Notes: a model not told the origin generated them from the letters alone. A stretch of 64,000 bases of DNA from Thermogemmata fonticola (GCF_013694095.1 NZ_JACEFB010000004.1:97638-161637); one strand, 5' to 3'; counted from the stretch's first letter, positions 7,802 through 60,461 are shown. Numbers and translations are program-made.

Positions 7802-7828
7802 GCGCTGCCGCTCCGACCAGGAGGACCA

Positions 7829-9019
7829 TCACTCACTCTTACGGCCGCAACCGATGAGCATCTCGCGCCGGACAGCCACTACAGCCAGCCGCTGCGGTTC
7901 GATTGTCACCCCCAGACCGCAGCCCGCCAGGGCCGGCGCCCGCCCCCCCCAGCCGATGGTGATGTCCTCCCGGCTCAGCCATTCCCGTACCAGATACCGA
8001 TCGTAGCTGCCCTCCAGATAGCGCAGGCCGCCCACACTCGTCGCAAAATGCCGCCCCGCCGCCGATAGGATTGCCGTCTCCCCCACCTGGCAGCCCAACT
8101 GGCATCCCAGTCCATGCTGCCGGGCCAATTGCACCAGCCGCAGCGAAGGAATGAACCCCCCGCACTTCGACAGCCGGATGTTGAACAGGTCGCACCAACC
8201 GTGGCGAATGGCCAGCTCCGCATCCCGCAGGCTGCAAACCGATTCATCCAGCATGATGGGAATGCGCACCTGCCGCCGCACTTCCGCCAGGCAGGACACC
8301 TCTTCCTGCGCCACCGGCTGCTCCACGCAACTGATGCCGAACGGCTCCAACTCGCGGATACGCTCAATGACTTCCCCCGCCGACCAGGCCTCGTTGGCGT
8401 CCACCCGCAGATCGATCCGCCGCCCCAGATAGCGCCGCAGCACACTCAGCCGCTTGACCTCGTCTTCCCCCTTGATGCCAACCTTCACCTTGACGTGTTC
8501 AAAACCGGTCCAGCGGTACACCAACGGATACAGCCGGCGCTTCCAGCCGCGGGGATTGGCCAGAATGCCGCTATAACGCACCTGGGGGCGGAACTGGTAC
8601 AGCTCCGGTGCGAGGATTTCCGCCACCCGGCTCAGCGGTTCGCCAAAAGCTCGCCCGCAGGCGTCCAGCAGGGCCAGCTCCACCGCACAGCGTGTGGCCT
8701 TGCCGATAATCTGCCGCTCATCCTCCTCCACCGGCGCGATTTGCAAGCGCTCCGCCAGCCGGACCCCCGCCACAAAGTCCGGAATCTCCTCCCCCAGTTG
8801 TTCCTCCAGCGCACTGCGCCGCAGCAGTTCCCAGCACGTGTCGATCGTCTCGCCGGTCACATACTCCCGCGGCACCCCTTCCCCGTAGCCCACGGAACCA
8901 TCGGAGAGAATGCAGCGGACCACCAGGTTCTCCGTCTCGCTGCGGCTGTGTGAAGCGTGTGTCACCCGGCGCTTCAAGGGAATCCGCACCTGCAACGCTT
9001 CCAGTTCCACCACGCGCAT
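7829..9019 (-). CDS. Enolase-superfamily enzyme (mandelate racemase / muconate lactonizing / dipeptide epimerase-like)
   Basis: 'KVKVG', 'RVDANEAWS' and 'CVEQPV' metal-ligand/catalytic motif spacing typical of MR/MLE. ATG verified at 9017-9019 (reverse complement). Confidence 0.7.
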   Translation of the reverse strand: MRVVELEALQVRIPLKRRVTHASHSRSETENLVVRCILSDGSVGYGEGVPREYVTGETIDTCWELLRRSALEEQLGEEIPDFVAGVRLAERLQIAPVEEDERQIIGKATRCAVELALLDACGRAFGEPLSRVAEILAPELYQFRPQVRYSGILANPRGWKRRLYPLVYRWTGFEHVKVKVGIKGEDEVKRLSVLRRYLGRRIDLRVDANEAWSAGEVIERIRELEPFGISCVEQPVAQEEVSCLAEVRRQVRIPIMLDESVCSLRDAELAIRHGWCDLFNIRLSKCGGFIPSLRLVQLARQHGLGCQLGCQVGETAILSAAGRHFATSVGGLRYLEGSYDRYLVREWLSREDITIGWGGRAPALAGCGLGVTIEPQRLAVVAVRREMLIGCGRKSE

Positions 9020-9061
9020 GAGTCTGATCTCACTTTCCGCTGGCAAGGGGAAGGAGGCCGA

Positions 9062-10930
9062 TCAGCCCACACGGCCGCCGAGCAGCCCCAAAGCATTCTG
9101 GCACAGCCACAAACCCAGGCCGACCAAAAGCGCCGCACTGAACGTCGGCAGCATCCGGAACCACCGGCTCTCGGAGAAACGATGCTGCCCGGCCCGCAGA
9201 GCATACACTACCGCCACACCCAAACCCACCAGCACCGCCCCCAATCCCAGACTGAAAGCCAGCAACAGCGGAATCGCCGCATCCAGCCGTCCCAGCGCCG
9301 ACGCCGCCACCAGCAACAGCACGGCGTCCCAGCACGGCACCAGTCCGCCCCCCAAACCCATCAACACCACGCGCAGCCAGCCGATCGTCCCCTCATCCTT
9401 CTTCGCCGTCGAGGACGGTGGACCTGCCTGCGGACGGCGGCTTCCCTCCGGTGAAGCAAATGCGGGCGCATCGGAGAACGGTGAGGAACCAGGAAGCGGA
9501 GAGGAACCAGAGGGAGGCGAACTTGGGCCGGTTGAATGCGGCTCATCACGGGCAGGGGTGGAAGGATGCCCCTGGGCAGGCGAGTCTTCCGGCGCCTCGC
9601 TCGGCGACTGATCCCGGCCAGAAGCATGGACCCGCTCATGGACCTGAGAAGCGGACTGAGCATGGGCCGGAGGGGGGGAAAGAGGAGAGGAAAGAGAGTG
9701 CGAGTGGTGGTGATGGTCGTGATGATGATGGCCCTGGTGATGGTGATGATGGTGGTGATGGTGATGGCCGCCGAAGAGGTGGAAGTGATCGGCTTGACCG
9801 GCGAGGCGGCGCGAGAGAAGCCACAGGCCCACCCCCACCACGAGAAGCCCAGCGGCCAATTGCAATAGGCCGTGGGCCAGAGCCGGGATTTGCGTCCCGT
9901 AGATCAGCCACAGAACAATCGCCACCAGGAACACCGAGCCGGTGTGGGCGATCGTGGTAGCCAAAGCCAGCAGGCAAGCGTGGCGGACCGTCCCCCGTTC
10001 GCCGATGAGATAGGCCGCCACCAGGGTTTTGCCGTGGCCGGGCGTGAAGGCATGCGCCGCTCCGAAGAGAAACGCCGCCAACAGCAAAATACCCCAACCG
10101 AGGTGCGAATCGAACAGGGCAAGCAGCCCCCGTTCGTGCAAGTCCGCCCAGAGACTGGAAGACGGACCCTCCGGCAGCGGCTCCGTGGAAAGCTCGGATG
10201 GCCCTAGCTCTGGTACAGCGGAGGAAGGCCCCGCGGAAGGCGGTGCCGGCCGCTCCGCCGGCAGGAGCACCTCCGCCCGCGCGCGCCGCGCCTGGAGCGC
10301 CTCCTCTGCGGACAACTGCTCGATCGGCCGGGAACGCAACCGCAGCGGCGGTTCCTCCAGGTCCACAATCTCCACCTCCCCTTCCGTCCCGCGGGCCGCC
10401 ACCGTCAGATGCACCAGGCCGGGATACTCCTCAAATGTCCGGTCCTCGATCTCCACGAGGCGTTGCCGCCCTCCGTTCGGCCAGCGGCCCCGCAGCAGGT
10501 ACCGGCATGTCGGGTGATCGCTCAGCGTCACGTCCCAGTGGATCAACTCCAGTGCCAACGGCTGGCCATCCACCCGGACCTGCAACCGCCCCTGCACTTC
10601 CTCCACGGCCTTCCGGGCGTAGGCCGTGGCATAGCCGCGCCAGGTCCGCTCCATGCGGGCGATTTCCTCCGGTGCCAGCCGCCGGGCCGCGTCCAGATGC
10701 ATCCCAAGCACGCTGACATCCAGCGTGTACGTGACGTCCACCCCCGCCGCCGATAAGCGCACGGCAATCGTGCGGTCAAAACGGACCTCCGCCAGGGGAT
10801 GGGCCGACACCGGGGGAACCGACCCCATCCCCCCTGAGGCCAACTCCCATACCCCCGCCAGCAGGAGCAGCCCCAGGAACCGCCCGAACGGGAGGCCGCG
10901 CCGTCCTCGAAGAACGCTATCCCATCGCAT
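9062..10930 (-). CDS. RcnA-family Ni2+/Co2+ efflux permease with fused N-terminal periplasmic domain and poly-His loop
   Basis: 'FTPGHGKTLVAAYLI' and 'GGLVPCWDAVLLL' match RcnA signature blocks. Cytoplasmic loop 'HHHHHHHHHHQGHHHHDHHHH'. About 300-aa N-terminal signal peptide plus soluble domain. ATG verified at 10928-10930 (reverse complement). Confidence 0.65.
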   Translation of the reverse strand: MRWDSVLRGRRGLPFGRFLGLLLLAGVWELASGGMGSVPPVSAHPLAEVRFDRTIAVRLSAAGVDVTYTLDVSVLGMHLDAARRLAPEEIARMERTWRGYATAYARKAVEEVQGRLQVRVDGQPLALELIHWDVTLSDHPTCRYLLRGRWPNGGRQRLVEIEDRTFEEYPGLVHLTVAARGTEGEVEIVDLEEPPLRLRSRPIEQLSAEEALQARRARAEVLLPAERPAPPSAGPSSAVPELGPSELSTEPLPEGPSSSLWADLHERGLLALFDSHLGWGILLLAAFLFGAAHAFTPGHGKTLVAAYLIGERGTVRHACLLALATTIAHTGSVFLVAIVLWLIYGTQIPALAHGLLQLAAGLLVVGVGLWLLSRRLAGQADHFHLFGGHHHHHHHHHHQGHHHHDHHHHSHSLSSPLSPPPAHAQSASQVHERVHASGRDQSPSEAPEDSPAQGHPSTPARDEPHSTGPSSPPSGSSPLPGSSPFSDAPAFASPEGSRRPQAGPPSSTAKKDEGTIGWLRVVLMGLGGGLVPCWDAVLLLVAASALGRLDAAIPLLLAFSLGLGAVLVGLGVAVVYALRAGQHRFSESRWFRMLPTFSAALLVGLGLWLCQNALGLLGGRVG

Positions 10931-11152
10931 ACTGCTATCAAACAGGAAACGCCCCCTGCCTGCAATGGGGGGCGTCCTGTTCGGCAGCTTGCGGAGCCTG
11001 CACCGCTTATCCTGAGATAAGGATGGCCCTGCGGAGGGATTATCTTGAGGAAGGAAACCGCCGCCTCTCCCCACCGGACTCGCTCGCGGCCCGAAATCCG
11101 AGACCGACAAGTGACGGACGGCCAGCGGTCAGTTCCAGGGAGGCCTTTCGCC

Positions 11153-12313
11153 TCACTTCTTCGGCTTGCAGTACGACAGGGCCATCAAGGCATAGCCGGT
11201 AACCAGATTCGGATCCCCTTCCATCCAGCGGTCGTTCTCATTGACCCAGCTTCCATCGGGCCGCTGGCGTTTGGCCAGCGCTGCCAGCAGGTCGGCCCGC
11301 CAGTCGTGCTTGACACCTTGCGCATCGGTGAACGTATCTTCACCCAAGGCATCCATGCACTTGGCAAACGTGTGATAGTAGTAATACAGGCCACGCTGGC
11401 TGTTGGCGGCAGGCATCCCCGGATTGGCGTCGAGCGTGTAATTCTTGGCAATCCACTCCAGGGCCTTCTTCATCCGCGGATCGTCCTTACTCACCCCGCA
11501 GTAAATCATGCTCTTGATCCCGGCGTAGGTCATGCTGCCGTAGCCCGCCAAATCCCCCTTGGTGTCGTCCGTGCGGCGGTTCTCTCCCTGATTGGCTCCC
11601 GTATAGATGAAGCTGCCGTCGTTGTACTTCCCGGCCCATTCTGCTGTGTTAAATTCGCTCTTGAAGTTCTGACACCGGCTGACGAAAACGAGCGCCTTTT
11701 TGAACGCCGGATCGTTCTTGTCCACCCCCGCCTCCTTGAGCGCTTCCAGGAAAAAGGCCGTGTTGGACAGGTCCGGCCGCGACTTGTCCCCGGCATAGCC
11801 GGCCCCGCCATAGTAGGTATGGTCCGGCGTCACCCCCCGCGCCTCATCCCACTGATACGACTTGAGGTACTTCACCGCATTGCCAATCACTGCCCGGTAC
11901 TTCTCCTCCCGCTTCGCCGCTGCCAGTGCCATCACATTGACGCTCGTCACATAGTTGATCAACGTCGCTTTGGCGTCATCCCCGGCAATATGCCCCGACT
12001 TCGCGTTCACCAGGGACTCGATATACTTCAAACCCTTGGCGGTCGTCGGGTCCTCCGGCCCATAACCGGTGCGGATCAGGCCCGTCACCACGATGCCGGT
12101 AATGCCCCGGCTCATCGGCTCCCGGCTCCAGCTCCCGTTCTCATTCTGGCTTTTGCGCAGAAACGCCACGGCCTTCTCCACCGTGGTCTGCCAGAGCTTC
12201 GCCGCATCCTCTTGCTGCCCGACGGCTTGACCCCGCCCCAGTCCCAGTCCCACCGCGGCTGCCACACCGAGAGCTGCGGCCAGTACACCGCTCACACGCT
12301 TGCCTTTCCCCAT
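11153..12313 (-). CDS. Prenyltransferase/squalene-oxidase repeat (terpene-cyclase-fold) secreted protein
   Basis: Signal peptide, then repeated QxxxGxW-type motifs ('NENGSWSRE', 'SYQWDEARG', 'QRPDGSWVNE'). ATG verified at 12311-12313 (reverse complement). Confidence 0.55.
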   Translation of the reverse strand: MGKGKRVSGVLAAALGVAAAVGLGLGRGQAVGQQEDAAKLWQTTVEKAVAFLRKSQNENGSWSREPMSRGITGIVVTGLIRTGYGPEDPTTAKGLKYIESLVNAKSGHIAGDDAKATLINYVTSVNVMALAAAKREEKYRAVIGNAVKYLKSYQWDEARGVTPDHTYYGGAGYAGDKSRPDLSNTAFFLEALKEAGVDKNDPAFKKALVFVSRCQNFKSEFNTAEWAGKYNDGSFIYTGANQGENRRTDDTKGDLAGYGSMTYAGIKSMIYCGVSKDDPRMKKALEWIAKNYTLDANPGMPAANSQRGLYYYYHTFAKCMDALGEDTFTDAQGVKHDWRADLLAALAKRQRPDGSWVNENDRWMEGDPNLVTGYALMALSYCKPKK

Positions 12314-12650
12314 CGTTTCAGCTCCTTGTGCCAAGTAACCTCCAATCGGTAAACCTGTGGGGAATTCCCCCCATCTCAGGCCAGGGGTGAAATGTGCAAT
12401 TCCCAAGCCGTAAGAACCAGCCCGGGCATCTTTCATCACTCACCCCACTATTCTACGCTCCAGTCCGAAGGATCAGGCCCTCCCCCGCTGGTCATCCTTT
12501 GACCACGCCTGATCACGCCGTAGCCACGCCCAAGGGACCAAGCCGCCCTGACTTCTCCATCGTAACCGGCGGCCGGCTCCCCACGGATCACCCTTGACAC
12601 CTTCCGCCTCGCGCCCTCATGATGCCCGCCACGGTTGAGGAGGAACCGGC

Positions 12651-14249
12651 ATGGATGCTACGCTTGCTCCGGTCACACCGCTGCATGTCTTGCGGCACCT
12701 GGTCACAGCCGTCCTGTGCCCCAGCCGTCCTTGCCCGGACACCGCGCCGCGCCTCGCCTCGGCCCTGGTGCTCCTCCTGCTCCCCGCGGCCCTCCTCTAT
12801 CCGACGCTGGACTTCCACCTGCTCGAACCCGACGAGGGCCGCTACGCCCAGATTCCCAAAGAGATGCTGCAACAGGGCCAATGGATCGTTCCGACCCTGC
12901 AAGGAGAGCCGTACCTGGACAAACCGCCGCTGATGTACTGGCTGACCGCCCTGTCCTACTGGCTTTTCGGTGTCAGTGCCGCCTCGGCTCGCCTGGTTCC
13001 CGCCTTGGCCGTACATTTGACCATCCTGAGCGTCTATTTTCTCGGCCGCCGCAGTGTCGGAGAAAAAGCCGCGTTTTGGGCCGCCCTGATCCTGACCCTG
13101 GCACCCGGCTACTGTGCTGTGGCCCGCCTCTTGCTCCTCGATGGACTTTTGACCCTCTGCATCACCCTGTCCCTCCTCTGCGGTTATGAAGCCGTCCGCA
13201 CCGGCCGCTTCCGCCCCGGCTACTGGCTCGCCGCCGCCGTGGCCTCCGGCCTGGGCTTCCTCACCAAAGGCCCGATTGCGGAAATCCTCCTCTTCATCCC
13301 CCTCTGGATTTTCACCTTCTTGACACACGGCCCCGGAGCTAGTCGCGCCACTCCCCCTCCTGCGGCCGTCCGCCCCGTTTGGTACCTGCTCTTCTTCGCC
13401 ATTGTCGCTGTTGTCAACTTGCCGTGGTATGTGGCTATCTACCTCCAGCAACCCCGCTTTTTGTTCCACTTCTTCTGGCAGCACAATGTCCTGCGCTTCC
13501 TCCAGCCCTTCGATCATCTCGAACCGGTGTGGTATTACTTGCCCCTCCTGCTAGCCGGCCTGCTCCCTGCGACGCCGTTGTTTGTGGTCCACCTGTTCCG
13601 CCTCTTTCTGCGGCCCGCCCACGACCCCAGCCGCCCCGCTTTGCCCGAGTTTTTCTGGCTCATCACCGCTCTGTGGTGCCTCCTCTTCTTCAGTTGTTCC
13701 GGCAGCAAACTCCCCACCTACATCCTGCCGGCCTACCCCCCTCTCTGCCTGGCTCTCGGCGCCGCCGCCGTCCGCTATCGCTGGCATCAACTCCTTCTGC
13801 CGCGCCTCAGCCTCGCTGCGATGGCCCTCCTCCTGGCCTGCGCCTTCCACGTCCTCATCCCGCTTTATGCGCGCGAACGATCTCCTTATGGACGGCCAGA
13901 ACTGATTGATCCATTCGTCGCAGATAAAAGTCAAACTATCGTTTGCTTCTCACGCAATTGCGATTCCATCGCCTTCTACCTCGACCGCTCCGACCTGCGC
14001 TCCGTCCGCACGCGGGATGTCAATCATCTGTACGTCGCCTGCCACTTCCGGCCCCGCACCGTCATCCTCTTTACCCACCGCGAAGCTTTAGCGGGCTTCC
14101 GCAACGCCCTGCCGCCAAGCCTGATGATTGTGGAAACCGTCTCCCTCCGCCGCAGCTACGGCCACCCTTGGCTTGACAAAATCCTCGGCATCACACCGTG
14201 GGGACTCTGCGACATCGCCGTCATCGCCCCCCGCTCCCTCCAACCGTGA
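12651..14249 (+). CDS. GT39/GT83 family glycosyltransferase (ArnT/PMT-like, polytopic membrane)
   Basis: 'EPDEGRYAQIPKEMLQQGQW' DE-motif loop between TM1 and TM2. Ten or more TM helices. ATG at 12651 with 'gaggagg' RBS upstream. Confidence 0.7.
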   Translation: MDATLAPVTPLHVLRHLVTAVLCPSRPCPDTAPRLASALVLLLLPAALLYPTLDFHLLEPDEGRYAQIPKEMLQQGQWIVPTLQGEPYLDKPPLMYWLTALSYWLFGVSAASARLVPALAVHLTILSVYFLGRRSVGEKAAFWAALILTLAPGYCAVARLLLLDGLLTLCITLSLLCGYEAVRTGRFRPGYWLAAAVASGLGFLTKGPIAEILLFIPLWIFTFLTHGPGASRATPPPAAVRPVWYLLFFAIVAVVNLPWYVAIYLQQPRFLFHFFWQHNVLRFLQPFDHLEPVWYYLPLLLAGLLPATPLFVVHLFRLFLRPAHDPSRPALPEFFWLITALWCLLFFSCSGSKLPTYILPAYPPLCLALGAAAVRYRWHQLLLPRLSLAAMALLLACAFHVLIPLYARERSPYGRPELIDPFVADKSQTIVCFSRNCDSIAFYLDRSDLRSVRTRDVNHLYVACHFRPRTVILFTHREALAGFRNALPPSLMIVETVSLRRSYGHPWLDKILGITPWGLCDIAVIAPRSLQP

Positions 14250-14571
14250 TTCCACTGACTGCTCCGGCACTTCTCGGACGCCTCAAGCTGCCCTCCACAG
14301 CAGAGCACCTCCCCAGTCCGCGCTTTCTTTCTGGCTGAAAAAAAAGGCGCAGGCAAACAGCACCAATATCGACCGGCCCGGAAATTCCTCCTCTCCCCCG
14401 AAAAATCCAGGTTTTCCTGCCCATTTTCCGCCCTCCAACCTCTCGGCCTTGCCGCGAGCATTTGACCCGCAGATTTCTCCGTTCTAGGTTGGAGACGGTG
14501 TGCGGATCGCACCGGCACGCCCTGTCTTTTGGCGGAAAATCCCACAGACCTGTCGCCCACGGTGTGGACCC

Positions 14572-15096
14572 ATGCTAGCCCGACGACACCTGCAAGCCCG
14601 CCGCGGCGTCTCGGCCGTGGAAATGGCCGTAGTCACCGTCGCCATCCTCCTTCCCACCATCATCGGCCTGTGGGAAGTCGGACGGCTGATCTATGTCACG
14701 CAAGTCGTCAGCCATGCCGCACGGGAAGGCGCACGCCTTGCTGCACAGGCTTATACCATCAACTCCAGTGGTCAAGTCGTGGACATCCACCGCGCCACCG
14801 GCGTCCCCAATGTCGCCAGCACGGTCTACCAAGCCCTTCGCGCTGGCGGACTCGCCCAACTCCAACCCACGGATGTCGCCGTTGAATTCCAATTTACCAG
14901 TGGAGACACCAGCCGCACCGAACCCTACCAGGGAGAGCGCGGACAGACATTCTTCGTCCGGGTCACCGTCCCGTGGTCCCGAGTGCGACTCATCAACCTC
15001 GGACTGATCAACCCAACGCAAGTGCAATTCACCGCCCACTGGCGAATGTTAATCGACGAGCGATTTAGCATCAATGATCGATTACCAACCTGGTGA
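14572..15096 (+). CDS. TadE-like minor pilin/pseudopilin domain protein
   Basis: 'RRGVSAVEMAVVTVAILLPTIIGLWEVGR' TadE/TadF N-terminal motif. ATG at 14572. Confidence 0.6.
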   Translation: MLARRHLQARRGVSAVEMAVVTVAILLPTIIGLWEVGRLIYVTQVVSHAAREGARLAAQAYTINSSGQVVDIHRATGVPNVASTVYQALRAGGLAQLQPTDVAVEFQFTSGDTSRTEPYQGERGQTFFVRVTVPWSRVRLINLGLINPTQVQFTAHWRMLIDERFSINDRLPTW

Positions 15097-15101
15097 TAAC
15101 C

Positions 15102-15668
15102 ATGAAAGTCAACACCACCCATAATTTGCAAAAACGTAAAGGTGCGGCCATTGTGGAAATGGCCCTCGTCATCACCGTACTGGCGATGCTCTTATTCGGC
15201 ATCTTTGAATACGCACGCTTTTTGTTTGTCATGCACATCACACATAATGCCGCTCGTGATGCCGCTCGCTACGCCGCTGTCAATCTAGATAAACCCAGTA
15301 ATTTTGATACAACAAACTACACCAATGCCACAGGCACAACCTTTCTCTCCGTCCAAAATTATGCCCGCGAACGCATGGCCGGCGCTCACGGCCAACTTGT
15401 CAACTTCCAAGTCGCCGTCTATCCGGTAGATAATACAGGTCTTTATCTAGATCCACCTGTTATTCGGCCAAAATCTAAGACTCCTGGAACATACCCAGAT
15501 CCCTTCAATCCGAGCGACCCGAATCGTGTGCCTTGGAGCCAAGCGGACTATACAGAAAAAATTGCAGTGACTATCCGAGGTGAATTCAGGAGTATTTTAC
15601 CGAATCTCCTGTTGATGCCAGCTACGATACAGATTGAAATAACAGGTATGTCAGCCGCAGAAGGATGA
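15102..15668 (+). CDS. TadE-like minor pilin/pseudopilin domain protein (second copy)
   Basis: 'KGAAIVEMALVITVLAMLLFGIFEYAR' TadE-like N-terminus. ATG at 15102, 5 nt after the preceding stop. AT-richer codon usage than neighbouring genes. Confidence 0.6.
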   Translation: MKVNTTHNLQKRKGAAIVEMALVITVLAMLLFGIFEYARFLFVMHITHNAARDAARYAAVNLDKPSNFDTTNYTNATGTTFLSVQNYARERMAGAHGQLVNFQVAVYPVDNTGLYLDPPVIRPKSKTPGTYPDPFNPSDPNRVPWSQADYTEKIAVTIRGEFRSILPNLLLMPATIQIEITGMSAAEG

Positions 15669-15690
15669 TATATTCACCAGGAGATTAGCT

Positions 15691-18588
15691 ATGATCTGTC
15701 GGCAGAAATCACAGGCGCGTCGCGGGATCGCCATCCCAGTGATTGCCATCTGCATCATCGGGCTATTCGCCTTCGTGGCGTTGGCTGTCGATCTTGGCAT
15801 GTTGGCCATCTCCCGCACCCATGCTCAGAACGCTGCTGACATCGCTGCTCTTGCAGGCACCCGTCAACTCAGCAACCGTCCGGGCGTGGTCAACAGCAAC
15901 TTGGCCCAAGCCGTTGCTGTCGCTCGCGATGCTGCCACCAGTAACTTCCATCGGAACGAACAATTTACACTTGCTCAAATCGAGCGGATCGATGTTGGGC
16001 AATATCTTTATGATCCGGTAAGTCAACAGTTTCGCGTCTCGACATGGTACAACGCCGCTGAGAATCCCACCCCACCGAGCGGTTCTTGGACCGCAATGCG
16101 TGTCCGCATGACGGCACCCCAATCCACCTATTTCATGAGGATCCTTGGTGTCAACACAATGACAACCTATGCCGTCGCCACGGCTGTCTATCGACCGCGT
16201 GATATTGCCTTTGTATTGGATATGACCGGCTCTATGCAATTCAGCTCGTTATTCAATTATGGCTCAAGATCACACAATCCAGATACCTTGATTCCACGCT
16301 TCGGACATTACAGCAATTCTACGATTCAATCTCGGTTAATATCAACAACGAACTACTCTTCTGGGGCTTATACTTACGCCAGAAACAATTTCACCATTTA
16401 CACTCCTGGCGGTCCCCCCATCATCCGCAACTTTTACTTCGACCCCGCCAATCTGAGCAATCCTACGACGCCCGCCGTGGCGGTCAATCCCGCCAATCTC
16501 CGCAATGCTTTCCATCGTTGGAATCCTCCAGAAAGCGGGGCCAATTCCGATACCTACACACCGCCGACCTACGATTTCACCGGTTACGATGCCTTTGACA
16601 CCACCAACAGCCGTGGTCCCACACCCGCCCCGTACAACTTCCAGTACATGACAGATTCCGGTGGTATCACCTATGTGGGTGATCGCTGGCGCCGTGCTGA
16701 TGGTTCTATTAATAAAACAGATACAACATGGAGCACTAGCAGTACTTCAACTAAGCCTGCAACGACTTTGATTGAGCTATTAGGTTATAATATTAGTGGT
16801 TCTAATGTCCGTGGCGGAACCAGTGGAACAACTGTCATTACAACGATTGATCGATTCCGCGATCCCATTTGGGAACAATATGGATATGATTTGGATATTG
16901 TCGCCTATCGAGCCGCGAAGGGAAACGGTCCGCCGCTGAATCCTGGTAGCTTTTCGACTCTCGTTCCCCCCCAGGACCGCTTCAAGGGCTACTCCATGGG
17001 ACCGGGGTATTGGGGCAAGACCTTTTTCATCTGGCCTCCTGACCCCCGTGCTCCAGTCGGTAGTCCAGGAGATGCCAACTATGTGCCGGGAGATTGGCGC
17101 CGCCGGTATTTCCTGAACCGAAACGGTAATCCCTTCGATCCTCAGGTGGATAATAATCCCAGTACATCTCCGGGGGCAAGCACGGGTTTTGAAGGCATCA
17201 ATCAGGTATTGCTTAATAACGCTGCGAATCAATTGACTGTGGCTGGATTTGGTACGACCTCAAATCCCAATTGGCGAATCAATTATACAGCAGTCTTGAA
17301 ATGGATTAAGAGTGACCCACAAGTACTGCCACCTAATCTCCGAGCAGGTCGAATTGTATATTATACATCGATACCAGATGATGTTAATACTTCATCTGGT
17401 ACGACAGAACAAAGATTAGATAAAGTATTTTGGAAGAATTATATTGATTTCGTATTAGGATGGAATTATATAAATAGTGGTTATTTGTATGGTCTTGGTG
17501 ATAGTTGGTCAATTGCGGCAACAAGTATCTACCAGAATAATCTCAATACGTGGACCGGGCCATCGAATAACTGGCCTAGTGCACGTCCATATATGCGCTA
17601 TGACGATTCCCCGAATCGGCCCCGCTTGCATTTTTGGTTCGGTCCTCTCAGCATGGTAGCGTTCATCGCTCAAAGATACCAGGTAAGTTCCAACGTCAAT
17701 TGGCTCCCTGGAACATGCTATGAATCTCAATGCTGGCAACTTAAGGCCGGTATGAACTCTGTAGTTGATGACTTGCGGAACAATCGTCCCAATGACAATT
17801 TCGGTCTTGTCTTTTTCGCCGCTTCACATCAGAACGGCATTCGTGTACCCATGGGACAAGATTACACTGCATTAAAAAATGCATTATTCTATCCGAGATC
17901 ATTACTCAATGCTATCAATAGTGGTAATACAACATCAGAGATTCGTCCATACAACTTGAGTTTTTCTGACACTATCAGTCGGGCAGAAATACCTAACGCT
18001 GCTGGTAGTACAGACCCAGTTACTGGCTTCTCTTACGCTTTCAATTTGTTGTCTCCATCGACGTATTTGCCAGCAAGTACCTATGGAACCATTCGCGGCC
18101 GTCGTGGTGCCGCTAAAGTAGTTATCTTTGAAACTGACGGTGTACCTAATACGGTACGAGTATTCAACTTCCGGATGCGGGGATATGATAGCTACTATGA
18201 ATCTACAGATTCAGTATATGGTGTAGGCGATGGTGGAGCAGATTCCATGAATACGGCGTATGCCGTGGTGCAGCAGATTGTCAAGCCGATGGCCACGACG
18301 AATGCTTCGGGTGTGGACAGCGGGTTGAGTCTACCGAATGCGCCGGCGCGGGTGTATGCCGTGGCGTTCGGCGATTTGTTCGATCCGCTGAACAACTCGA
18401 CCTTCCGAACAACTGCGTTACAGTTTCTAGCGAATGTGGCGGCCTACGGCGGCACAGGCGAGATGGGAGCGACGACTATTCCTGACGATCAAATCATCAC
18501 GGGAACGTATCAGCAGCGTATCGACCGCTTGCGCAATTGCATGCAACGGATATTCAAGTCAGGTGTATCTGTCACTCTCATCGAATAG
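15691..18588 (+). CDS. TadG-like N-terminal domain protein with von Willebrand factor A domain (965 aa, Asn/Tyr/Thr/Ser-rich)
   Basis: 'RRGIAIPVIAICIIGLFAFVALAVDLGML' TadG-type N-terminus. 'DIAFVLDMTGSM' MIDAS-like vWA motif. ATG at 15691 preceded by 'ggagat'. Confidence 0.65.
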   Translation: MICRQKSQARRGIAIPVIAICIIGLFAFVALAVDLGMLAISRTHAQNAADIAALAGTRQLSNRPGVVNSNLAQAVAVARDAATSNFHRNEQFTLAQIERIDVGQYLYDPVSQQFRVSTWYNAAENPTPPSGSWTAMRVRMTAPQSTYFMRILGVNTMTTYAVATAVYRPRDIAFVLDMTGSMQFSSLFNYGSRSHNPDTLIPRFGHYSNSTIQSRLISTTNYSSGAYTYARNNFTIYTPGGPPIIRNFYFDPANLSNPTTPAVAVNPANLRNAFHRWNPPESGANSDTYTPPTYDFTGYDAFDTTNSRGPTPAPYNFQYMTDSGGITYVGDRWRRADGSINKTDTTWSTSSTSTKPATTLIELLGYNISGSNVRGGTSGTTVITTIDRFRDPIWEQYGYDLDIVAYRAAKGNGPPLNPGSFSTLVPPQDRFKGYSMGPGYWGKTFFIWPPDPRAPVGSPGDANYVPGDWRRRYFLNRNGNPFDPQVDNNPSTSPGASTGFEGINQVLLNNAANQLTVAGFGTTSNPNWRINYTAVLKWIKSDPQVLPPNLRAGRIVYYTSIPDDVNTSSGTTEQRLDKVFWKNYIDFVLGWNYINSGYLYGLGDSWSIAATSIYQNNLNTWTGPSNNWPSARPYMRYDDSPNRPRLHFWFGPLSMVAFIAQRYQVSSNVNWLPGTCYESQCWQLKAGMNSVVDDLRNNRPNDNFGLVFFAASHQNGIRVPMGQDYTALKNALFYPRSLLNAINSGNTTSEIRPYNLSFSDTISRAEIPNAAGSTDPVTGFSYAFNLLSPSTYLPASTYGTIRGRRGAAKVVIFETDGVPNTVRVFNFRMRGYDSYYESTDSVYGVGDGGADSMNTAYAVVQQIVKPMATTNASGVDSGLSLPNAPARVYAVAFGDLFDPLNNSTFRTTALQFLANVAAYGGTGEMGATTIPDDQIITGTYQQRIDRLRNCMQRIFKSGVSVTLIE

Positions 18589-18603
18589 GAATACCATACA
18601 AAA

Positions 18604-19371
18604 ATGGAGCGCAATGTGAATTGTGCTGTTCATTGGGAACATGTCAGCAAGTTCTATCCGGTCGGGCCGACAGGTTGGCGGCGGGTGACGGCGGTGGAGG
18701 ACATCACGCTGTCCGTTCCTTACGGCTCGGTTTTCGGACTCATCGGCCCAAATCGCGCGGGAAAGACGACGCTGCTGAAGCTCTTACTTTCGCTCACCTA
18801 TCCCAGTGCCGGGCAGATTTATCGTCTGGGCCGTCCAGCTCATGACATACATACATTATCTCGTGTTGGATATATGCATGAGAATCATGCATTTCCATAC
18901 TATTTGACAGCTTCGGAGATATTGTATCTTTATGGTGGTTTGACAGGCTTAGCGGGGGCGGAATTGCGGCGGCGAGTGGAGGAAGAATTGCGGCGCGTGG
19001 GCTTGGCCGATCGGCAACATGAGGCGATCCGCACTTATAGCAAGGGGATGCTCCAGCGGCTAGGATTGGCCCAGGCGTTGCTCGCGGAACCGGAGCTTTT
19101 GGTGCTCGATGAGCCGACGGAGGGGCTGGACCTGGCAGGACGGCAGTTACTGCGGCAGGTGGTGACAGCGATGCGGCAGCAGGGAAAGACGGTGCTGATG
19201 GTTTCGCATACCCTGGCGGAGATCGAGCAGTTGTGCGACCGGGTGGCAGTTTTGGTCGCTGGCAGACTCGCCTTTACGGGGACAATGGCTGAGTTGCAAT
19301 CGAACCATCTGGAGTATGATACCTTGGAGAAAAAATTGATGGCTATTTACGAACAGAGGATTGCTATATGA
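18604..19371 (+). CDS. ABC transporter ATP-binding protein (ABC-2 subfamily)
   Basis: Walker A 'GPNRAGKTT', signature 'YSKGMLQRLGLAQAL', Walker B 'LLVLDEPTEGLD'. ATG at 18604. Confidence 0.85.
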   Translation: MERNVNCAVHWEHVSKFYPVGPTGWRRVTAVEDITLSVPYGSVFGLIGPNRAGKTTLLKLLLSLTYPSAGQIYRLGRPAHDIHTLSRVGYMHENHAFPYYLTASEILYLYGGLTGLAGAELRRRVEEELRRVGLADRQHEAIRTYSKGMLQRLGLAQALLAEPELLVLDEPTEGLDLAGRQLLRQVVTAMRQQGKTVLMVSHTLAEIEQLCDRVAVLVAGRLAFTGTMAELQSNHLEYDTLEKKLMAIYEQRIAI

Positions 19372-20363
19372 CGGCCTTGCCTCTGGCTATACGCACAGTT
19401 CGTTGGATGATATGGGATACTTATCGTCAATCTCTGGCATCTCGTTTGTTATGGGTGATGCTCGGTTTGACTTTTTTATGCACTTTACTTTGCTTAAGTT
19501 TATCTGTCACTGGAGATGAATATTCGGCTAGCCATCCGTTTGAGTTGCCGATGTATGTCCCGGCAGCGGAGGCGGGGGAGGAGGTGCGGGCCGAGGGGAT
19601 TCGAGTCGTGTCGGGCGAGGTGTCGCTGGGGTTTGGGTTGGTGCGTTTTCCTGTGGGGCGGAGCCGGGCAGATGCGGTGCATTGGTTCCAGGTTTGGCTG
19701 GCTGGCGTGCTGGCGGACACGGTGGGAGTACTGCTGGCGCTGCTGTGGACAGCGGCGTATCTGCCACAGTTTTTGGAGCCGCAGTCGATCAGTGTGCTCT
19801 TGGCCCGGCCCACGCCGCGCTGGGCCTTGCTGACGGGCAAGTATCTGGGCGTTGTCCTCTTTGTGGGATTTCATGCATTTCTTTTTATATTCGCAACATG
19901 GTTTTCTATAGGATTAAAGACTGGTATTTGGGAAGTCCGTTATTGGTTCGCTTTGCCTATTTTGCTGATGAATTTTTCGGTGTTCTACGCATTCAGCGTG
20001 ATGCTTGCTGTATGTAGCCGCGGTGTTATGGTTCCGCTCTTTGGCACACTCTTGTTCTGGGTGCTATGTTGGGCGATGAATATCACGCGGCATACATTCC
20101 TGACGCTGGAGGCGGTGGAGTGGTCCACGCTGACGCCGCTGTTGGTGGAGGTGGGCTATTGGCTGTTGCCCAAGCCGCTGGATGGGAGCGGGCTGTTTTA
20201 CGAGGCGCTGCGGGCGGAGGGCGTAGCCGCTCCGGTCCCGGAGTGGGAAGCGGCGTGTGCGCGAGGAGCCGTCGTGCCGGAATTGTCCGTGCTGTCCTCC
20301 CTGCTCTTCGGCCTGGTCGTGCTGGTGCTGGCCGCTTGGGAGTTCCGCCGGGCGGAATACTGA
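19368..20363 (+). CDS. ABC-2 type transporter permease
   Basis: Six predicted TM helices. ATGA overlap with the upstream ATPase stop (translational coupling). Confidence 0.6.
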   Translation: MTALPLAIRTVRWMIWDTYRQSLASRLLWVMLGLTFLCTLLCLSLSVTGDEYSASHPFELPMYVPAAEAGEEVRAEGIRVVSGEVSLGFGLVRFPVGRSRADAVHWFQVWLAGVLADTVGVLLALLWTAAYLPQFLEPQSISVLLARPTPRWALLTGKYLGVVLFVGFHAFLFIFATWFSIGLKTGIWEVRYWFALPILLMNFSVFYAFSVMLAVCSRGVMVPLFGTLLFWVLCWAMNITRHTFLTLEAVEWSTLTPLLVEVGYWLLPKPLDGSGLFYEALRAEGVAAPVPEWEAACARGAVVPELSVLSSLLFGLVVLVLAAWEFRRAEY

Positions 20364-20621
20364 TCCTTTCCACCGCCTTTCGGGTTATCATACCGTTCTT
20401 ATCACCGAGCTTCCCAGCGTGAGAGTTTTCTTCCGCGCATCTTTGGGGGGCATTCTGGATTTCCCCGCAAAAGCCAAGGCGTGCCGGGAGGACGAAAAAG
20501 GGGGGGTCCGTGTTTGGCCCGTCCGGGGATTTCGCGGCAATTCGCTTGAATCTGGGCAAGTTGTGCGGTCGATAACAAGGGTGCGAAAAGCGCCGGACGG
20601 AGGGGCGCCGCAGGAGGCGAC

Positions 20622-23369
20622 ATGAGAAGCAGAAGGGGTAAGCGCGGTTGGGTGGCTGTGGCCGTGGCGGCGATGTTGGCGGTGGGGTGCACGCGGCAAT
20701 TTTTCCGGGAGCGGGCCGACGCTGACGTGGAAGGGATATTGACGCAGAAGAATGTATTTCCGGAATGGGCAGTGCAGAATTGGCACGTGTATCCGGACCC
20801 GCGGTCGCGCTTTGCCGATCCGTATTCGCCGGACCATCCGCCGTATCCCCCCGATGATTATGCAGCGCGCTTGCTGTCGCCGAATCCGCAGCGGCCGGGG
20901 AAGAAGAGCGGGGTGGGGCGTTACGAGGGGACGGGGTATTTGGCGCTGTTGGCGCAGTGGGATGCAGCCAATCGAGCGGAGGGGGGAGAGGAAGTCCGGC
21001 CAGCGGGGGGATGGGTTATGCCGGAGGAGGCGGTCCCTGGGGAAGCGAACGGCGGAGAAGGTGGAGCGGGAGCGGAAGACGCAGGCGAGGAGAAGAAGGC
21101 GGCTCCTCCGCGGGGGGGAGAGGCGGAGGCAGCGGATTATCAGCGGGCGCTGCGGAGCGAGCAGCGGGGGTACCGCATCAAGCTGCACCAGGCGGTGGAG
21201 CTGGGTTTGCTCAACAGCCGGGAATTTCAAGACCGGCGGGAGGATTTGTATTTGGCGGCGCTGCAAGTGACGCTGTCGCGGTTCAATTTTGCGGCCCAAG
21301 CGTTTTTCGCGGAGCAGGTGTTCCGCCGGTCGATCGGGCAGGATTTGGGCGGCGGGGAGCTGTGGGACATCAATACGACGGCGGGCGTGAGCAAGCGCTT
21401 TCCGAGCGGGGCAGCGCTTTTGATCCAACTGGCGAATCAGGTGGTCATCGACCTGGGTTCCAACCGTCCGGACATCGCGGTGTCGAATTTGACGTTGAGC
21501 GTGCTCCAGCCGTTTTTGCGCGGCGGGGGTTTGGCGGTGAATTTGGAGAATTTGACAGCGGCGGAGCGGAACCTGGTGTATGCAATGCGGTCGTATGCGC
21601 GCTTTCGCAAGATTTACTATGTGTCGGTGGCGGCAGGAGGCGGACTGACGAACAATCCTTACGGACTGCAAGGTCTGGCGCCGAATTTGGGACGCGGGAT
21701 CGGGGGAAATTTGACCTCGCCGAGCGTGGGGTTTCTGCAATTGTTGCAGCAGGCGGCGCAGATAGCCAATCAGCGGAAGAATGTGGCGGAGTTGGAGCGG
21801 CTGTTGCGGTTGTACCGGGCGTTTCGGGAAGGGGGCCAGCAGTCGGATTTGCAAGTGGGTCAGGTGGAAGTGTCGATGCTCAGCAGCCGGGCGAATCTGC
21901 TCAACGGGGGTGGAGGTGCGCCGGGTTTGCGGCAGTATTTAGATCAGTTGGACAATTTCAAGCTGCAATTGGGTTTGCCGCTGACGGTGGCGCTGGAGCT
22001 GGACGACGAGCCGCTGCGGCCCATTCGGGAGCAGTTGGGACGGTTCGAGGCGATCTATGCGGACCTGCGGGCGGTGGAGGAGGCGGCACGGCAGTTTGAT
22101 CCCCAGGAACCGGTGGAGCGGTTCCGGGAGCGGTGGCGGCGCTTGCTGACGGAGTCGGCCCTGGTGAAAGGAACCCAGTTTGCCCGCGGTATAGAGAGTC
22201 GCTGGGAGTCATGGCGGCGGCTGACCGAGGACCAGTGGCAAGAACGGATGGCCCGATTGCGGCGGGAGCGGACGGAGTTGCTCAATCGCCGGGCGGAGCG
22301 GCAGCAAAAGGGGGAAGCGGAACCGGCCGAGGAGGCGGCCCGGCTGGAGGCATTGGAGAATGAGCTGGCCCTGGGAACGTTCGAGCGGGCGGTGCGGCAA
22401 TACGAGCAGCAGCCGTGGTTGAAGGAGAAAGGCCCGCAGCGGGAAAGTGTGCAGGCGGTAGCGTTCCGGGAGGTGGTCAACAGTTTTTATCAGGTGGTGC
22501 TGGAGGCGCGGGGGGAACGTTTGGAGCGGGTGCGGGGGCAGTGGCCGGCTTTGCCGCCGGTGGTGGTGGACGGGGTGGATGTGCTGCAAGCGCCGCTGGA
22601 CGAGGCATACGCGGCGGGCATGGCCACGGCATTGACCCACCGGCTGGACCTGATGAACGCCCGCGCCCTGGTGGTCGATGCCTGGCGGCAGATTGCGGTC
22701 CAGGCAAATTCCTTGCAAGGGGTGTTCGATGTTCGCTATGATATGACAGCAAGCACCCCCGCGGGGGAAAGTCGGCCGTTTGCCTTCGCCGCCGACCGAA
22801 CCCGCCACCAATTGACCTTCCGGGCCGAGTTGCCCCTGGTCCGCCGAGCGGAGCGGAACAACTACCGGGCGGCGCTGATCAGCTATCAACGGCAGCGGCG
22901 CACCCTGATGGCCTTCGAGGACAACATTGCCAATGACGTGCGTGCAGACATTCGCCAGTTGCGCACGTTGGCAGAGCTATACCGGATTCAGCAACGGGTG
23001 GTGGAGCTAGGCTACTCGCAGGTGGACAACGCCCAGGCGGTGCTGTTGCAGCCGCCGGACCCGCAGGCCCGGACCGACGCTGGCAGTGCCGCCGCCCTGA
23101 CACAACAGGTTCTGCAAACGCAAAGCAGCCTGCTCGCGGCTCAGAACCAGTTGTTCACTCTGTGGGTCAGCTATCTGACGGCCCGGATGCAACTCTACCT
23201 GGATTTGGAATTGTTGCACCTGGACGAGCGAGGAGTCTGGAACGATGACGCCGAGCACGGAATCGATGAGCCGGTCCGAGCCGTTCCCCGCCGTTGGCCT
23301 GCCGAGCGGCTCCCCCTCCCCCGGCCTGCCGCCGAGCCACTCCCCACTGCTCCCCGCCCCGCCCAGTAA
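20622..23369 (+). CDS. TolC-like outer-membrane efflux lipoprotein with long N-terminal low-complexity extension
   Basis: Lipobox 'LAVGC'. Coiled-coil/heptad-rich 900-aa body with two repeated halves, as in outer-membrane factors. 'aggagg' RBS and ATG at 20622. Confidence 0.55.
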   Translation: MRSRRGKRGWVAVAVAAMLAVGCTRQFFRERADADVEGILTQKNVFPEWAVQNWHVYPDPRSRFADPYSPDHPPYPPDDYAARLLSPNPQRPGKKSGVGRYEGTGYLALLAQWDAANRAEGGEEVRPAGGWVMPEEAVPGEANGGEGGAGAEDAGEEKKAAPPRGGEAEAADYQRALRSEQRGYRIKLHQAVELGLLNSREFQDRREDLYLAALQVTLSRFNFAAQAFFAEQVFRRSIGQDLGGGELWDINTTAGVSKRFPSGAALLIQLANQVVIDLGSNRPDIAVSNLTLSVLQPFLRGGGLAVNLENLTAAERNLVYAMRSYARFRKIYYVSVAAGGGLTNNPYGLQGLAPNLGRGIGGNLTSPSVGFLQLLQQAAQIANQRKNVAELERLLRLYRAFREGGQQSDLQVGQVEVSMLSSRANLLNGGGGAPGLRQYLDQLDNFKLQLGLPLTVALELDDEPLRPIREQLGRFEAIYADLRAVEEAARQFDPQEPVERFRERWRRLLTESALVKGTQFARGIESRWESWRRLTEDQWQERMARLRRERTELLNRRAERQQKGEAEPAEEAARLEALENELALGTFERAVRQYEQQPWLKEKGPQRESVQAVAFREVVNSFYQVVLEARGERLERVRGQWPALPPVVVDGVDVLQAPLDEAYAAGMATALTHRLDLMNARALVVDAWRQIAVQANSLQGVFDVRYDMTASTPAGESRPFAFAADRTRHQLTFRAELPLVRRAERNNYRAALISYQRQRRTLMAFEDNIANDVRADIRQLRTLAELYRIQQRVVELGYSQVDNAQAVLLQPPDPQARTDAGSAAALTQQVLQTQSSLLAAQNQLFTLWVSYLTARMQLYLDLELLHLDERGVWNDDAEHGIDEPVRAVPRRWPAERLPLPRPAAEPLPTAPRPAQ

Positions 23370-25377: not shown

Positions 25378-25454
25378 GCTTTCCCCGCGCCCCGGCCTCC
25401 GGGCTTCCCCCGCCGTCCCTGCCCTTCACCGCTTGGCCCTGTGGGAATCATCGC

Positions 25455-39674: not shown

Positions 39675-39748
39675 GAATGCACCCGGAGGGAGTCGAACCC
39701 CCAACCCTCGGTTCCGAAGACCGATGCTCTGTCCAGTTGAGCTACGGG
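39675..39748 (-). tRNA. tRNA-Arg (anticodon TCG)
   Basis: Hand-folded cloverleaf: acceptor GCACCCG/CGGGTGC, D-arm GCTC-AACTGGACA-GAGC, anticodon stem TCGGT/ACCGA with loop CTTCGGA, T-arm GGGGG-TTCGACT-CCCTC, discriminator A. No CCA encoded. Confidence 0.75.
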
Positions 39749-47071: not shown

Positions 47072-47215
47072 GAGCGTGGCCAGGTTCAGGAGGTGAGCCA
47101 GTAGCACTAGCAGGGTGAGTTGTCCTACGAGGAGCGAACACAGGCGGGGCAGGACAGGATCGCGCGTTTGGCGGCCAGTCTTCCCTAAGCGAGAGATTGC
47201 GGGAGAGAGGTGGAC

Positions 47216-60448: not shown

Positions 60449-60461
60449 AAGGAGAGCAACG

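Follow-up and report, generated by a model that had tools for sequence, protein, structure and literature searches.

Five genes at positions 14572–20363 of the analysed stretch of Thermogemmata fonticola DNA (64 kb in all, hereafter the window) are one operon. They encode two TadE-type minor pilins (TadE1 and TadE2), a large TadG/CpaL-type protein with a vWA domain (TadG), and the ATPase and permease of an ABC-2 exporter. The first three proteins probably form the tip and initiation complex of a Tad (type IVc) pilus, encoded in a conserved operon that has been inherited vertically rather than recently imported. The features of the locus are the following.

14250..14571, + strand: intergenic region of 322 nt, 5′ of TadE1
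14572..15096, + strand: TadE-type minor pilin 1 (TadE1), 174 aa; PF07811, E = 3.5e-11, 43.5 bits
15102..15668, + strand: TadE-type minor pilin 2 (TadE2), 188 aa, GC3 0.46; PF07811, E = 1.1e-12, 48.3 bits
15691..18588, + strand: TadG/CpaL-type large minor-pilin-like vWA protein (TadG), 965 aa, GC 0.49, GC3 0.49
15691..16197, + strand: TadG residues 1–169, with leader, alpha-1 helix and pilin-like helix-plus-beta-sheet module (structure model, alignment A1)
16198..16248, + strand: first vWA segment, residues 170–186, with strand beta-1 and the MIDAS loop D177-M-T179-G-S181 (model, invariant columns)
16249..17715, + strand: conserved insert of ∼490 residues in the vWA fold, roughly residues 187–675 (alignment, model)
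17716..18588, + strand: second vWA segment, residues 676–965, with MIDAS residues T774 and D816 (invariant columns, fold matches)
18604..19371, + strand: ABC ATPase of the ABC-2/type-V exporter class, 255 aa; PF00005, E = 1.5e-26
19368..20363, + strand: ABC-2 permease, NosY-like (COG1277), 331 aa; PF12679, 28.8 bits

The gaps along the series TadE1-TadE2-TadG-ATPase-permease are 5, 22, 15 and −4 nt, and the first two match exactly the spacers given in the initial annotation. The next long gap (258 nt, 20364–20621) lies 3′ of the permease. Because the 322-nt region is the only long gap upstream, the promoter of the operon presumably lies within it; a search of this region for a sigma-70 site returned no convincing candidate. 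TadE1 is likewise 174 aa long in public assemblies, and TadG is identical to WP_194537513.1 (T. fonticola).

Both small proteins exceed the PF07811 gathering cut-off (43.5 and 48.3 versus 22.9 bits), and the two share 34% identity over 101 aa. Each carries a class-III signal, composed of a basic leader, Gly at −1, Glu at +5 and a hydrophobic helix thereafter (...QARRG/VSAVEMAVV in TadE1 and ...QKRKG/AAIVEMALV in TadE2). A motif scan of the window found such signals in the two TadE genes only. The G/xxxxE signal is kept in orthologues of both paralogues from the Gemmatales to the Pirellulales.

The N-terminus of TadG matches PF13400 (Tad) with 34 bits against a cut-off of 22.3, and the alpha-1 helix there is long and hydrophobic and is accompanied by a pilin-like beta module, as in TadG/CpaL-type proteins. 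Its leader is basic, ends in G12 and is followed by a conserved Pro16 (position +4), without Glu at +5. The structure model, which is of high confidence (pLDDT 90.5, pTM 0.87), comprises an N-terminal helix (alpha-1, residues 14–59, 46 residues), a beta-sheet module and a vWA domain in two segments; residues 55–165 also give a weak match to Tad_C (PF09977). In the vWA domain, strand beta-1 is modelled at residues 170–177, and alpha and beta elements alternate over residues 681–963. The insert that separates the two segments is rich in loops yet modelled confidently, and contains the motifs SMGPGYWGKTFFIWPPDPR, GDWRRR and PRLHFWFGPLS. The MIDAS is complete (D-x-S/T-x-S, T, D), as in a vWA fold: D177, S181, T774 and D816, the last within an invariant E-T-D-G motif, are invariant in 97 sequences, and T179 in 24 sequences from Gemmatales and Isosphaerales. 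The fold matches listed for the protein are to vWA domains only; none of those listed points to another fold for the insert. Pfam VWA families gave no match at E ≤ 0.01, because the ∼490-residue insert splits the domain; the fold evidence stands. Thus the identities proposed at the outset (TadE, TadE and TadG with vWA) hold, by PF07811 twice and PF13400, all above cut-offs, and by fold and MIDAS for the vWA domain; of the HMM searches then suggested, those for TadE and Tad returned matches and that for VWA did not. The profile of alignment A1 found no sequence-level match in the PDB. The closest structural match of TadG is the pilus minor pilin PilB, with 255 aligned residues that cover more than the vWA domain alone. 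Values of dN/dS are ∼0.04 for TadG and ∼0.04 for TadE2; therefore both are under strong purifying selection.

Alternatively, TadG could be a BatA/BatB-type membrane-anchored vWA protein of a Bat/MoxR aerotolerance-like system, in which case the TadE-like genes would encode unrelated small membrane proteins. We regard this as very improbable. The N-terminus matches Pfam Tad and not the BatA N-terminal domain, the PilB alignment takes in the pilin-like module, and the TadE genes, which encode pilin signals, are conserved alongside TadG. Neighbourhood analysis largely refuted the Bat reading, in that a MoxR ATPase, DUF58 and a TPR BatC-like gene are absent from the cassette and its conserved neighbours.

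The order TadE-TadE-TadG-ABC ATPase-ABC-2 permease is found repeatedly in Gemmatales, Isosphaerales and Pirellulales, which answers in the affirmative the question of synteny in relatives raised by the initial annotation. The trio, described there as an orphan, belongs instead to a five-gene cassette conserved in these three orders. This cassette is kept across the class Planctomycetia and is commonly retained by planctomycetes; it is therefore inherited, and no recently imported orphan. Of 63 loci, 43 have the ABC pair directly 3′ of TadG, with cases in each of the four identity groups, and 20 lack it; an adjacent TadE pair is present in 47 of 79 loci. Among 28 Gemmata/Isosphaera-type loci, 22 carry TadG with the ABC pair but have no TadE pair next to them. 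In that group the exporter is therefore a closer companion of TadG than the minor pilins are, a pattern that a pure tip model does not predict. The initial annotation had placed the trio next to an ABC-2 exporter and a TolC/HlyD/ABC-ATPase set. The first adjacency is borne out, and the second set falls outside the conserved unit because it neighbours the cassette within the close clade only.

The base composition of the locus is unusual. GC per kb over 15–20 kb is 0.505, 0.502, 0.445, 0.521 and 0.550 against ∼0.65 elsewhere, so TadE2 and TadG are indeed AT-richer than their surroundings, as first noticed. GC3 is 0.46–0.49 in TadE2 and TadG versus 0.75–0.85 in adjoining genes, and the minimum of the operon (0.17, per 60 codons) falls in the vWA insert. 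TadG is rich in Asn (8.1%), Tyr (5.5%), Thr (8.8%) and Ser (8.3%) relative to background values of 2.2, 2.7, 4.8 and 5.1%, respectively. The initial annotation had reported this enrichment correctly; its proposal that amino acid content drives much of the shift was wrong. Under host codon usage TadG would be expected to have GC 0.60 and GC3 0.79, as opposed to the observed 0.49 and 0.49; therefore the shift is mostly synonymous (∼70% of the GC drop).

Such a composition might suggest that the trio was acquired horizontally from a lower-GC donor, as the initial annotation implied. The low GC3 is shared by no other of the ∼43 window ORFs, ISAZ013-type transposases flank the cassette in a more distant relative (L086), and dS of TadG is 0.88 versus 0.33–0.46 in the flanks, or about twofold higher. 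We nonetheless judge this origin quite unlikely. In five related lineages the cassette is found in one and the same slot, between a PMT glycosyltransferase and an OEP-like gene; flank and cassette genes share one topology, their trees being congruent; and the clade's ABC genes form a monophyletic group. Moreover, nearest-neighbour order is constant along the region (300-nt windows), GC rises and falls in parallel across all lineages at fine scale, and the shift begins and ends gradually and patchily, without sharp edges. At 4-fold sites the window lineage shows 22 GC>AT versus 24 AT>GC changes, a balance that carries no amelioration signal, and the nearest outgroup orthologues have normal GC. 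No integrase, other mobility gene, or direct or flanking repeat was found around the cassette, and no tRNA near it; the only tRNA of the window is at 39678–39751. Of the marks of a genomic island, then, the locus has deviant composition, without mobility marks, incongruence or patchy presence. Recent horizontal transfer of the cassette is not supported. The dip is limited to the T. fonticola clade, where three loci (L090, L089 and L087) show it and a fourth, L085, shows almost none of it, with the same synteny throughout; 67 other loci lack it. The L090 lineage has an excess of AT>GC changes (31 versus 9), and the locus may therefore be off stable equilibrium in some lineages. An ancient replacement of the cassette may have taken place in the clade's common ancestor. 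Our preferred account is that the low GC of TadE2 and TadG was inherited vertically at the same locus and probably reflects a locally weaker GC-favouring force.

The exporter pair has the hallmarks of the ABC-2/type-V (NosFY-like) class, an ABC_tran ATPase with a six-helix ABC2_membrane_2 permease. The ATPase (94 bits to PF00005) retains intact Walker A (GPNRAGKT), Walker B (LLVLDE) and H-loop (SHT) motifs, and its nearest solved relatives are ABCA NBD2 and NosF (E = 2e-42 for NosF). The permease matches PF12679 marginally (28.8 bits, cut-off 27.2), and its six-helix topology was read by eye from the translation. Its family, named multi-copper enzyme maturation permease by JGI, is constant in length at 331 aa with 55–63% identity. 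NosD, NosL and NosZ are absent from the cassette and its conserved neighbours. The NosFY-like exporter is a conserved, co-transcribed partner of the trio. In our literature search, no study connected Tad minor pilins with an ABC-2 transporter, a point that weighs against the pilus-tip reading.

This partnership raises the alternative, close to the idea of the initial annotation, that the five genes make up a self-contained envelope machine that operates without a Tad pilus. Here the NosFY-like exporter would power the extraction, assembly or exposure of the membrane-anchored TadG, whether or not the TadE pseudopilins take part, and the product would be a cell-surface adhesin or a short pseudopilus. 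TadG, ATPase and permease do form the most constant unit (the 43 loci above), with very short or overlapping gaps, and many Gemmataceae loci have TadG-ABC but no adjacent TadE genes. The ATPase is of the ABCA/NosF class, which in the Nos system works with a periplasmic partner, and the window is devoid of Tad machinery. Even so, we hold such a machine to be unlikely. To our knowledge, no ABC-driven pseudopilin system exists. The prepilin-peptidase signal of the TadE proteins, with Glu5, makes sense only for type IV filament assembly, the closest structural match of TadG is a true pilus minor pilin, and TadG occurs without the ABC pair in the remaining 20 loci. In addition, remote tip genes are already known for Tad pili (PMC12607857, PMC12075869).

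As the initial annotation had stated, the window lacks Tad machinery, which counts against a Tad pilus tip: Pfam searches of its ∼43 ORFs revealed no Tad ATPase, no gene for a platform protein, secretin, CpaB, prepilin peptidase or Flp, and no Flp-like small ORF was found, so the window holds no complete Tad/Flp (type IVc) pilus locus. Nor are Tad machinery genes present among the conserved neighbours in ∼80 loci. In two cassette-bearing relatives, Limnoglobus roseus (PMC7397252) and Singulisphaera (PMC11279305), Tad machinery genes are reported elsewhere in the genome, including Flp, TadA, TadB/C, TadV and RcpA. From these relatives and from the peptidase signals, we infer a Tad system in T. 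fonticola itself.

Knowledge of Tad and other type IV filaments suggests how the trio might work. The motor, platform, secretin, prepilin peptidase and Flp major pilin would be encoded elsewhere in the genome. TadE1 and TadE2 would enter the inner membrane, where a TadV/CpaA-type peptidase would cut them after the conserved Gly and expose Glu5. TadG would contribute its long alpha-1 helix and pilin-like module without Glu5. The apical GspK of type II secretion pseudopili has been described with the same features, again without Glu5. The three alpha-1 helices would then form a bundle, and the trimer would prime Flp pilin polymerisation beneath it before being carried outward on the pilus tip. 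There, the vWA MIDAS (D177, T179, S181, T774 and D816) could bind a surface ligand via a metal ion, and the ∼490-residue insert would probably serve in ligand binding or force sensing. By analogy to CpaL and KilLMN, the complex is most likely located at the pilus tip. Caulobacter CpaL is predicted to cap the pilus with CpaJ and CpaK (PMC12607857), and Myxococcus encodes three of its four KilLMN tip clusters separately from the kil machinery (PMC12075869). Because CpaL has the same layout and the KilLMN sets are similar, a pilus tip fits better than a pilus-independent adhesin. The initial annotation had preferred the adhesin; these precedents, together with the TadE G/xxxxE signals and the pilin-like module, favour the tip.

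Comparison with known systems places the cassette near several of them. NosF/NosY of nitrous-oxide reductase maturation resemble the exporter pair, in that among solved bacterial relatives NosF comes closest to the ATPase, and the permease belongs to PF12679/COG1277; however, the pair lacks NosD, NosL and NosZ, and its conserved neighbour is a TadG-type protein. The classical TadE/TadF/TadG of Aggregatibacter and Pseudomonas share PF07811 and PF13400, the order small-small-large and G/xxxxE in the minor pilins. They are found inside a flp-tadV-rcpCAB-tadZABCD locus, whereas the 64 kb around the cassette contain no machinery, and unlike classical TadG the cassette protein approaches 1000 aa and has a split vWA domain. 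Streptococcus sanguinis PilB (PDB 7b7p) is a type IVa minor pilin with a vWA module, but it comes from a monoderm, is only 14–16% identical to TadG and, at 420 residues, is less than half its length.

KilL/KilM/KilN of Myxococcus xanthus likewise combine two small and one large minor pilin in clusters apart from Tad-like machinery (PMC12075869). Their TadG-like large subunit is a backbone with a modular C-terminal domain, and the minor pilins are processed by a prepilin peptidase encoded elsewhere (PMC12075869). The KilN module is described without a structural homologue, whereas that of TadG is vWA/MIDAS; Kil tips serve predation, and the description mentions no ABC transporter (PMC12075869). 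The likeness to CpaL of Caulobacter crescentus is drawn from its published description rather than from a sequence comparison. CpaL differs in its shorter insert (∼180 versus ∼490 residues) and in the F/E at +5 of its proposed cleavage motif, which TadG lacks. Furthermore, cpaL stands alone, while the three genes of the cassette are contiguous and co-transcribed with an ABC-2 exporter. Nevertheless, CpaL is an orphan gene product encoded outside the main pilus cluster; it combines a leader signal at the N-terminus with a pilin-like module, and inserted beta-rich domains split its vWA domain immediately behind the MIDAS loop (PMC12607857). Its MIDAS reads D-x-T-x-S...T...D (PMC12607857), its structural neighbours overlap those of TadG (SpaC, RrgA, Mfa5 and PilB), and like TadG it has two TadE/F-type partners, CpaJ and CpaK.

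The TadE and TadG genes of the window belong to a cassette of five co-directional genes. ORF listing and translation give intergenic gaps of 5, 22, 15 and -4 nt within it, and on either side of it the gaps are longer, at 322 nt and 258 nt. Two TadE-type minor pilins and a 965-aa vWA protein (TadG) are followed by a NosFY-like pair of ABC genes:

Genes of the cassette, with their Pfam matches
14572-15096, + strand: TadE1, matching TadE (PF07811)
15102-15668, + strand: TadE2, matching TadE (PF07811)
15691-18588, + strand: TadG, 965 aa, matching Tad (PF13400) at its N-terminus
18604-19371, + strand: ABC ATPase, matching ABC_tran
19368-20363, + strand: ABC-2 permease, matching ABC2_membrane_2

An NCBIfam search yields TadE-like matches below threshold only. 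TadG is an exact match to WP_194537513.1 of Thermogemmata fonticola, which belongs to the Gemmataceae and has been cultured, and several public assemblies show the same contig context. A promoter and terminator scan finds no convincing operon promoter or terminator for the cassette. Sigma-70-like promoter matches between 14000 and 21000 number 14 (5.5 ± 2.3 expected), most of them on the minus strand inside the AT-rich TadG gene, where antisense or spurious intragenic transcription is possible.

The TadE-TadE-TadG trio is best explained as a putative tip and initiation module of a Tad pilus, of the CpaJKL/KilLMN kind, encoded remotely from its machinery, and this tip module as part of a Planctomycetia-wide cassette that includes the NosFY-like ABC-2 exporter. 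The initial annotation described a trio with Tad domains, low GC and no Tad machinery in the 64-kb window, and read it as an orphan adhesin module. The description holds; the orphan-adhesin reading is not supported, given the Planctomycetia-wide cassette and the precedents of the CpaL and Kil tips. A Pfam scan of ∼43 window ORFs detects no T2SSE-type ATPase, T2SSF platform, secretin, CpaB, A24 peptidase or Flp, and G-x4-E class-III signals are confined to the two TadE genes in a six-frame motif scan. Pfam matches in the window comprise Hsp70, cytochromes, a P-type ATPase, a histidine kinase, UvrD, a tRNA synthetase, DsbD, an alternative-complex-III-like set, cytochrome oxidase and an OEP-like/HlyD-like/ABC-ATPase trio. 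The P-type ATPase, a 1091-aa protein (30363-33638, - strand), combines E1-E2 ATPase and HAD hydrolase domains with a C-terminal SPFH/Band 7 domain in what looks like an unusual fusion. Tad genes are reported in relatives that bear the cassette: Flp, TadA, TadB/C, TadV and RcpA in the genome description of Limnoglobus roseus, whose TadG-ABC locus is L059 of our survey (PMC7397252), and Flp, TadA/B/C/E/V/Z and RcpC, upregulated on chitin, in Singulisphaera (PMC11279305).

Database searches return 497 homologues of TadG. Those of Gemmata, Frigoriglobus, Singulisphaera and Isosphaera are 50-65% identical to it over the full length, and a Pirellulales subfamily of ∼830 aa, named ‘TadG-related’ by NCBI, is equally abundant. 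A TadG profile search of 1.84 billion cluster representatives returns 433 clusters (50% identity) at E ≤ 1e-30. We surveyed the neighbourhoods of 80 genome loci, reading related loci with ±10 kb. The ABC ATPase and permease lie directly downstream of TadG in 43 of the 63 loci with enough flank, every identity group being represented, and the TadE pair adjoins TadG in 47 of 79. All-against-all clustering of neighbouring ORFs reveals no further conserved partner, and our literature search found no paper on the TadE-TadE-TadG-ABC cassette in Planctomycetes. An upstream PMT glycosyltransferase and a downstream OEP-like/HlyD-like/ABC set adjoin the cassette within the Thermogemmata clade only. This downstream set (20622-26171), conserved in the close clade only, encodes a 915-aa protein, a 665-aa HlyD-like adaptor and a 238-aa ABC ATPase; the OEP/TolC match of the 915-aa protein is weak and confined to residues 667-806, and no MacB/FtsX-type permease is detected adjacent to the set. 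In some Gemmataceae genomes there is also a second TadG paralogue, ∼1085 aa long and with no ABC pair downstream (L052 vs L007, LR594584.1; L051 vs L016), consistent with a set of interchangeable tip proteins in each genome, like that of Myxococcus. In the more distant relative L086 (TadG 65% identical, JGI 3300076801), ISAZ013-type DDE transposase genes lie on both sides of the five-gene cassette (7245-17050 of that locus), which may sometimes move as a composite-transposon-like unit:

ISAZ013-type DDE transposase genes of L086
7245-8474, - strand
15819-17050, + strand

The TadE1 (RRG|VSAVEMA) and TadE2 (RKG|AAIVEMA) signals are Tad-type, with Glu at +5, as are those of their orthologues from all orders. 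In the alignment, TadG retains the Gly and has a conserved Pro at +4 but lacks Glu5. The apical minor pseudopilin of type II secretion, GspK, likewise lacks Glu5, and this likeness suggests that TadG may occupy an apical position. Pfam finds no VWA domain in TadG; nonetheless D177, S181, T774 and E814-T815-D816-G817 are invariant among its homologues (alignments of 24 and then 97 sequences), and T179 is invariant in the first 24. A first structure prediction from 24 sequences (pLDDT 59, insert unresolved) was superseded by a model built on the 97-sequence alignment, with Pirellulales added (pLDDT 90.5, pTM 0.87). In this model, the predicted N-terminal part is a 46-residue helix followed by a helix-plus-sheet module. 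The first strand of the predicted vWA domain ends at a D-x-T-x-S loop, from which an insert of ∼490 residues, conserved and confidently folded in the model, leads to the remainder of a Rossmann-like fold. Among the fold matches listed, none other than vWA domains was detected, and neither the TadG alignment profile nor the permease matches any PDB sequence.

The cassette ATPase is closest to ABCA NBD2 and NosF, and the permease, a NosY-like COG1277 protein, varies strikingly little in length. No Nos partners accompany the cassette; Nos and Bat/MoxR systems were both rejected on gene neighbourhood. We found no report in the literature that links Tad minor pilins to an ABC-2 transporter, for any Tad system. 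TadG and the NosFY-like transporter might instead be the conserved core of an autonomous, Planctomycetia-specific machine, in which the ABC transporter rather than a Tad ATPase and platform would energise the extraction or display of pilin-like proteins, or would export an adhesive substance in coordination with binding by the tip. We consider such a machine improbable; if real, it would assemble or service type-IV-pilin-like proteins in a way not described before. An exporter-dependent, pilus-independent role for TadG is also conceivable. Our preferred reading remains a remotely encoded Tad pilus tip. Between the window and the close Thermogemmata loci L085, L087, L089 and L090, the two ABC proteins are only 53-63% identical, against 78-93% for neighbouring genes, and they diverge within the clade about as far as from Gemmata orthologues. 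These identities prompted us to consider replacement of the ABC genes, a reading we rejected since both genes recover the clade as monophyletic. Their low identity, with monophyly on long branches, indicates that the exporter proteins of this clade have evolved at a strongly accelerated rate.

GC drops from ∼0.65 to 0.45-0.55 between positions 15 and 20 kb of the window. Background genes have a GC3 of 0.75-0.85, compared with 0.66 in TadE1, 0.46 in TadE2, 0.49 in TadG and 0.62 and 0.66 in the ABC genes; GC2 is flat across the shift. The shift had been taken as largely amino-acid driven. The Asn/Tyr/Thr/Ser richness of TadG is real, yet it is common to high-GC orthologues, and with host codon usage TadG would show a GC of 0.60 and a GC3 of 0.79, so ∼70% of the drop is instead synonymous. 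Elsewhere, positions 46331-61700 hold ordinary respiratory genes: an alternative-complex-III-like cluster, with a multihaem cytochrome c, an Fe-S subunit and an NrfD-like membrane subunit, and after it SCO1 and cytochrome oxidase subunits II, I, III and IV. The lower GC of this region (∼0.60) is driven by amino-acid composition, since GC3 stays at 0.79-0.85.

Recent horizontal transfer, which the initial annotation implied, is not supported. Gene trees share one topology for all genes, flank or cassette, and the dip lies in the same synteny in L090 (94% identity), L089 (89%) and L087 (83%) and is nearly absent in L085 (79%). No tRNA, integrase or island-type repeats flank the cassette; the sole match of Rfam and tRNA scans of the window is a tRNA-Arg at 39678-39751. 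The edges of the shift are gradual. In 67 other loci orthologue GC is in line with flank GC (mean difference -0.011). Polarised 4-fold-site changes are balanced in the window lineage (22 GC>AT vs 24 AT>GC) and so give no sign of amelioration; the L090 lineage has an AT>GC excess. Purifying selection on TadG is strong (dN/dS 0.04), yet the dS of this gene is about twice that of the flanks (0.88 vs 0.33-0.46). Patchy GC3 and high dS prompted us to consider mosaic recombination among Thermogemmata lineages, rejected because nearest-neighbour order is constant, with no switch in 300-nt windows; at fine scale, the GC profiles of the five lineages all run in parallel. Background GC3 in these closely related, fully syntenic lineages is ∼0.60 (L087), 0.67 (L089), 0.78 (L090), 0.80 (window) and 0.85 (L085), so genome-wide base composition has shifted quickly in Thermogemmata. 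Taken together, these data place the origin of the AT shift within the T. fonticola clade or its ancestor, with inheritance since then. The shift is consistent with a GC-favouring force that is locally weaker, which might be codon selection or biased gene conversion; an ancient replacement of the cassette in the clade's ancestor is conceivable. A vertically inherited composition anomaly can thus pass for horizontal transfer, and in this clade a local, vertical GC3 drop goes together with faster synonymous change in a gene that purifying selection strongly constrains.

Surface attachment is a known trait of planctomycetes and, to our knowledge, there has been almost no molecular study of their pili. 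It is only recently that the tips of Tad pili were recognised as modules encoded separately, which determine what a pilus attaches to or senses, as with CpaL in Caulobacter and the Kil tips in Myxococcus, and the cassette shows such a module to be widespread and strongly conserved in Planctomycetia as well. [quoted passage not shown] Myxococcus has four TadE/F/G-like tip trios, three of them, like the trio here, encoded away from the machinery (PMC12075869). Two features go beyond these known tips, the ∼490-residue insert within the vWA domain and the coupling, across orders, to a NosFY-like ABC-2 exporter, and either could guide experiments in a tractable planctomycete.
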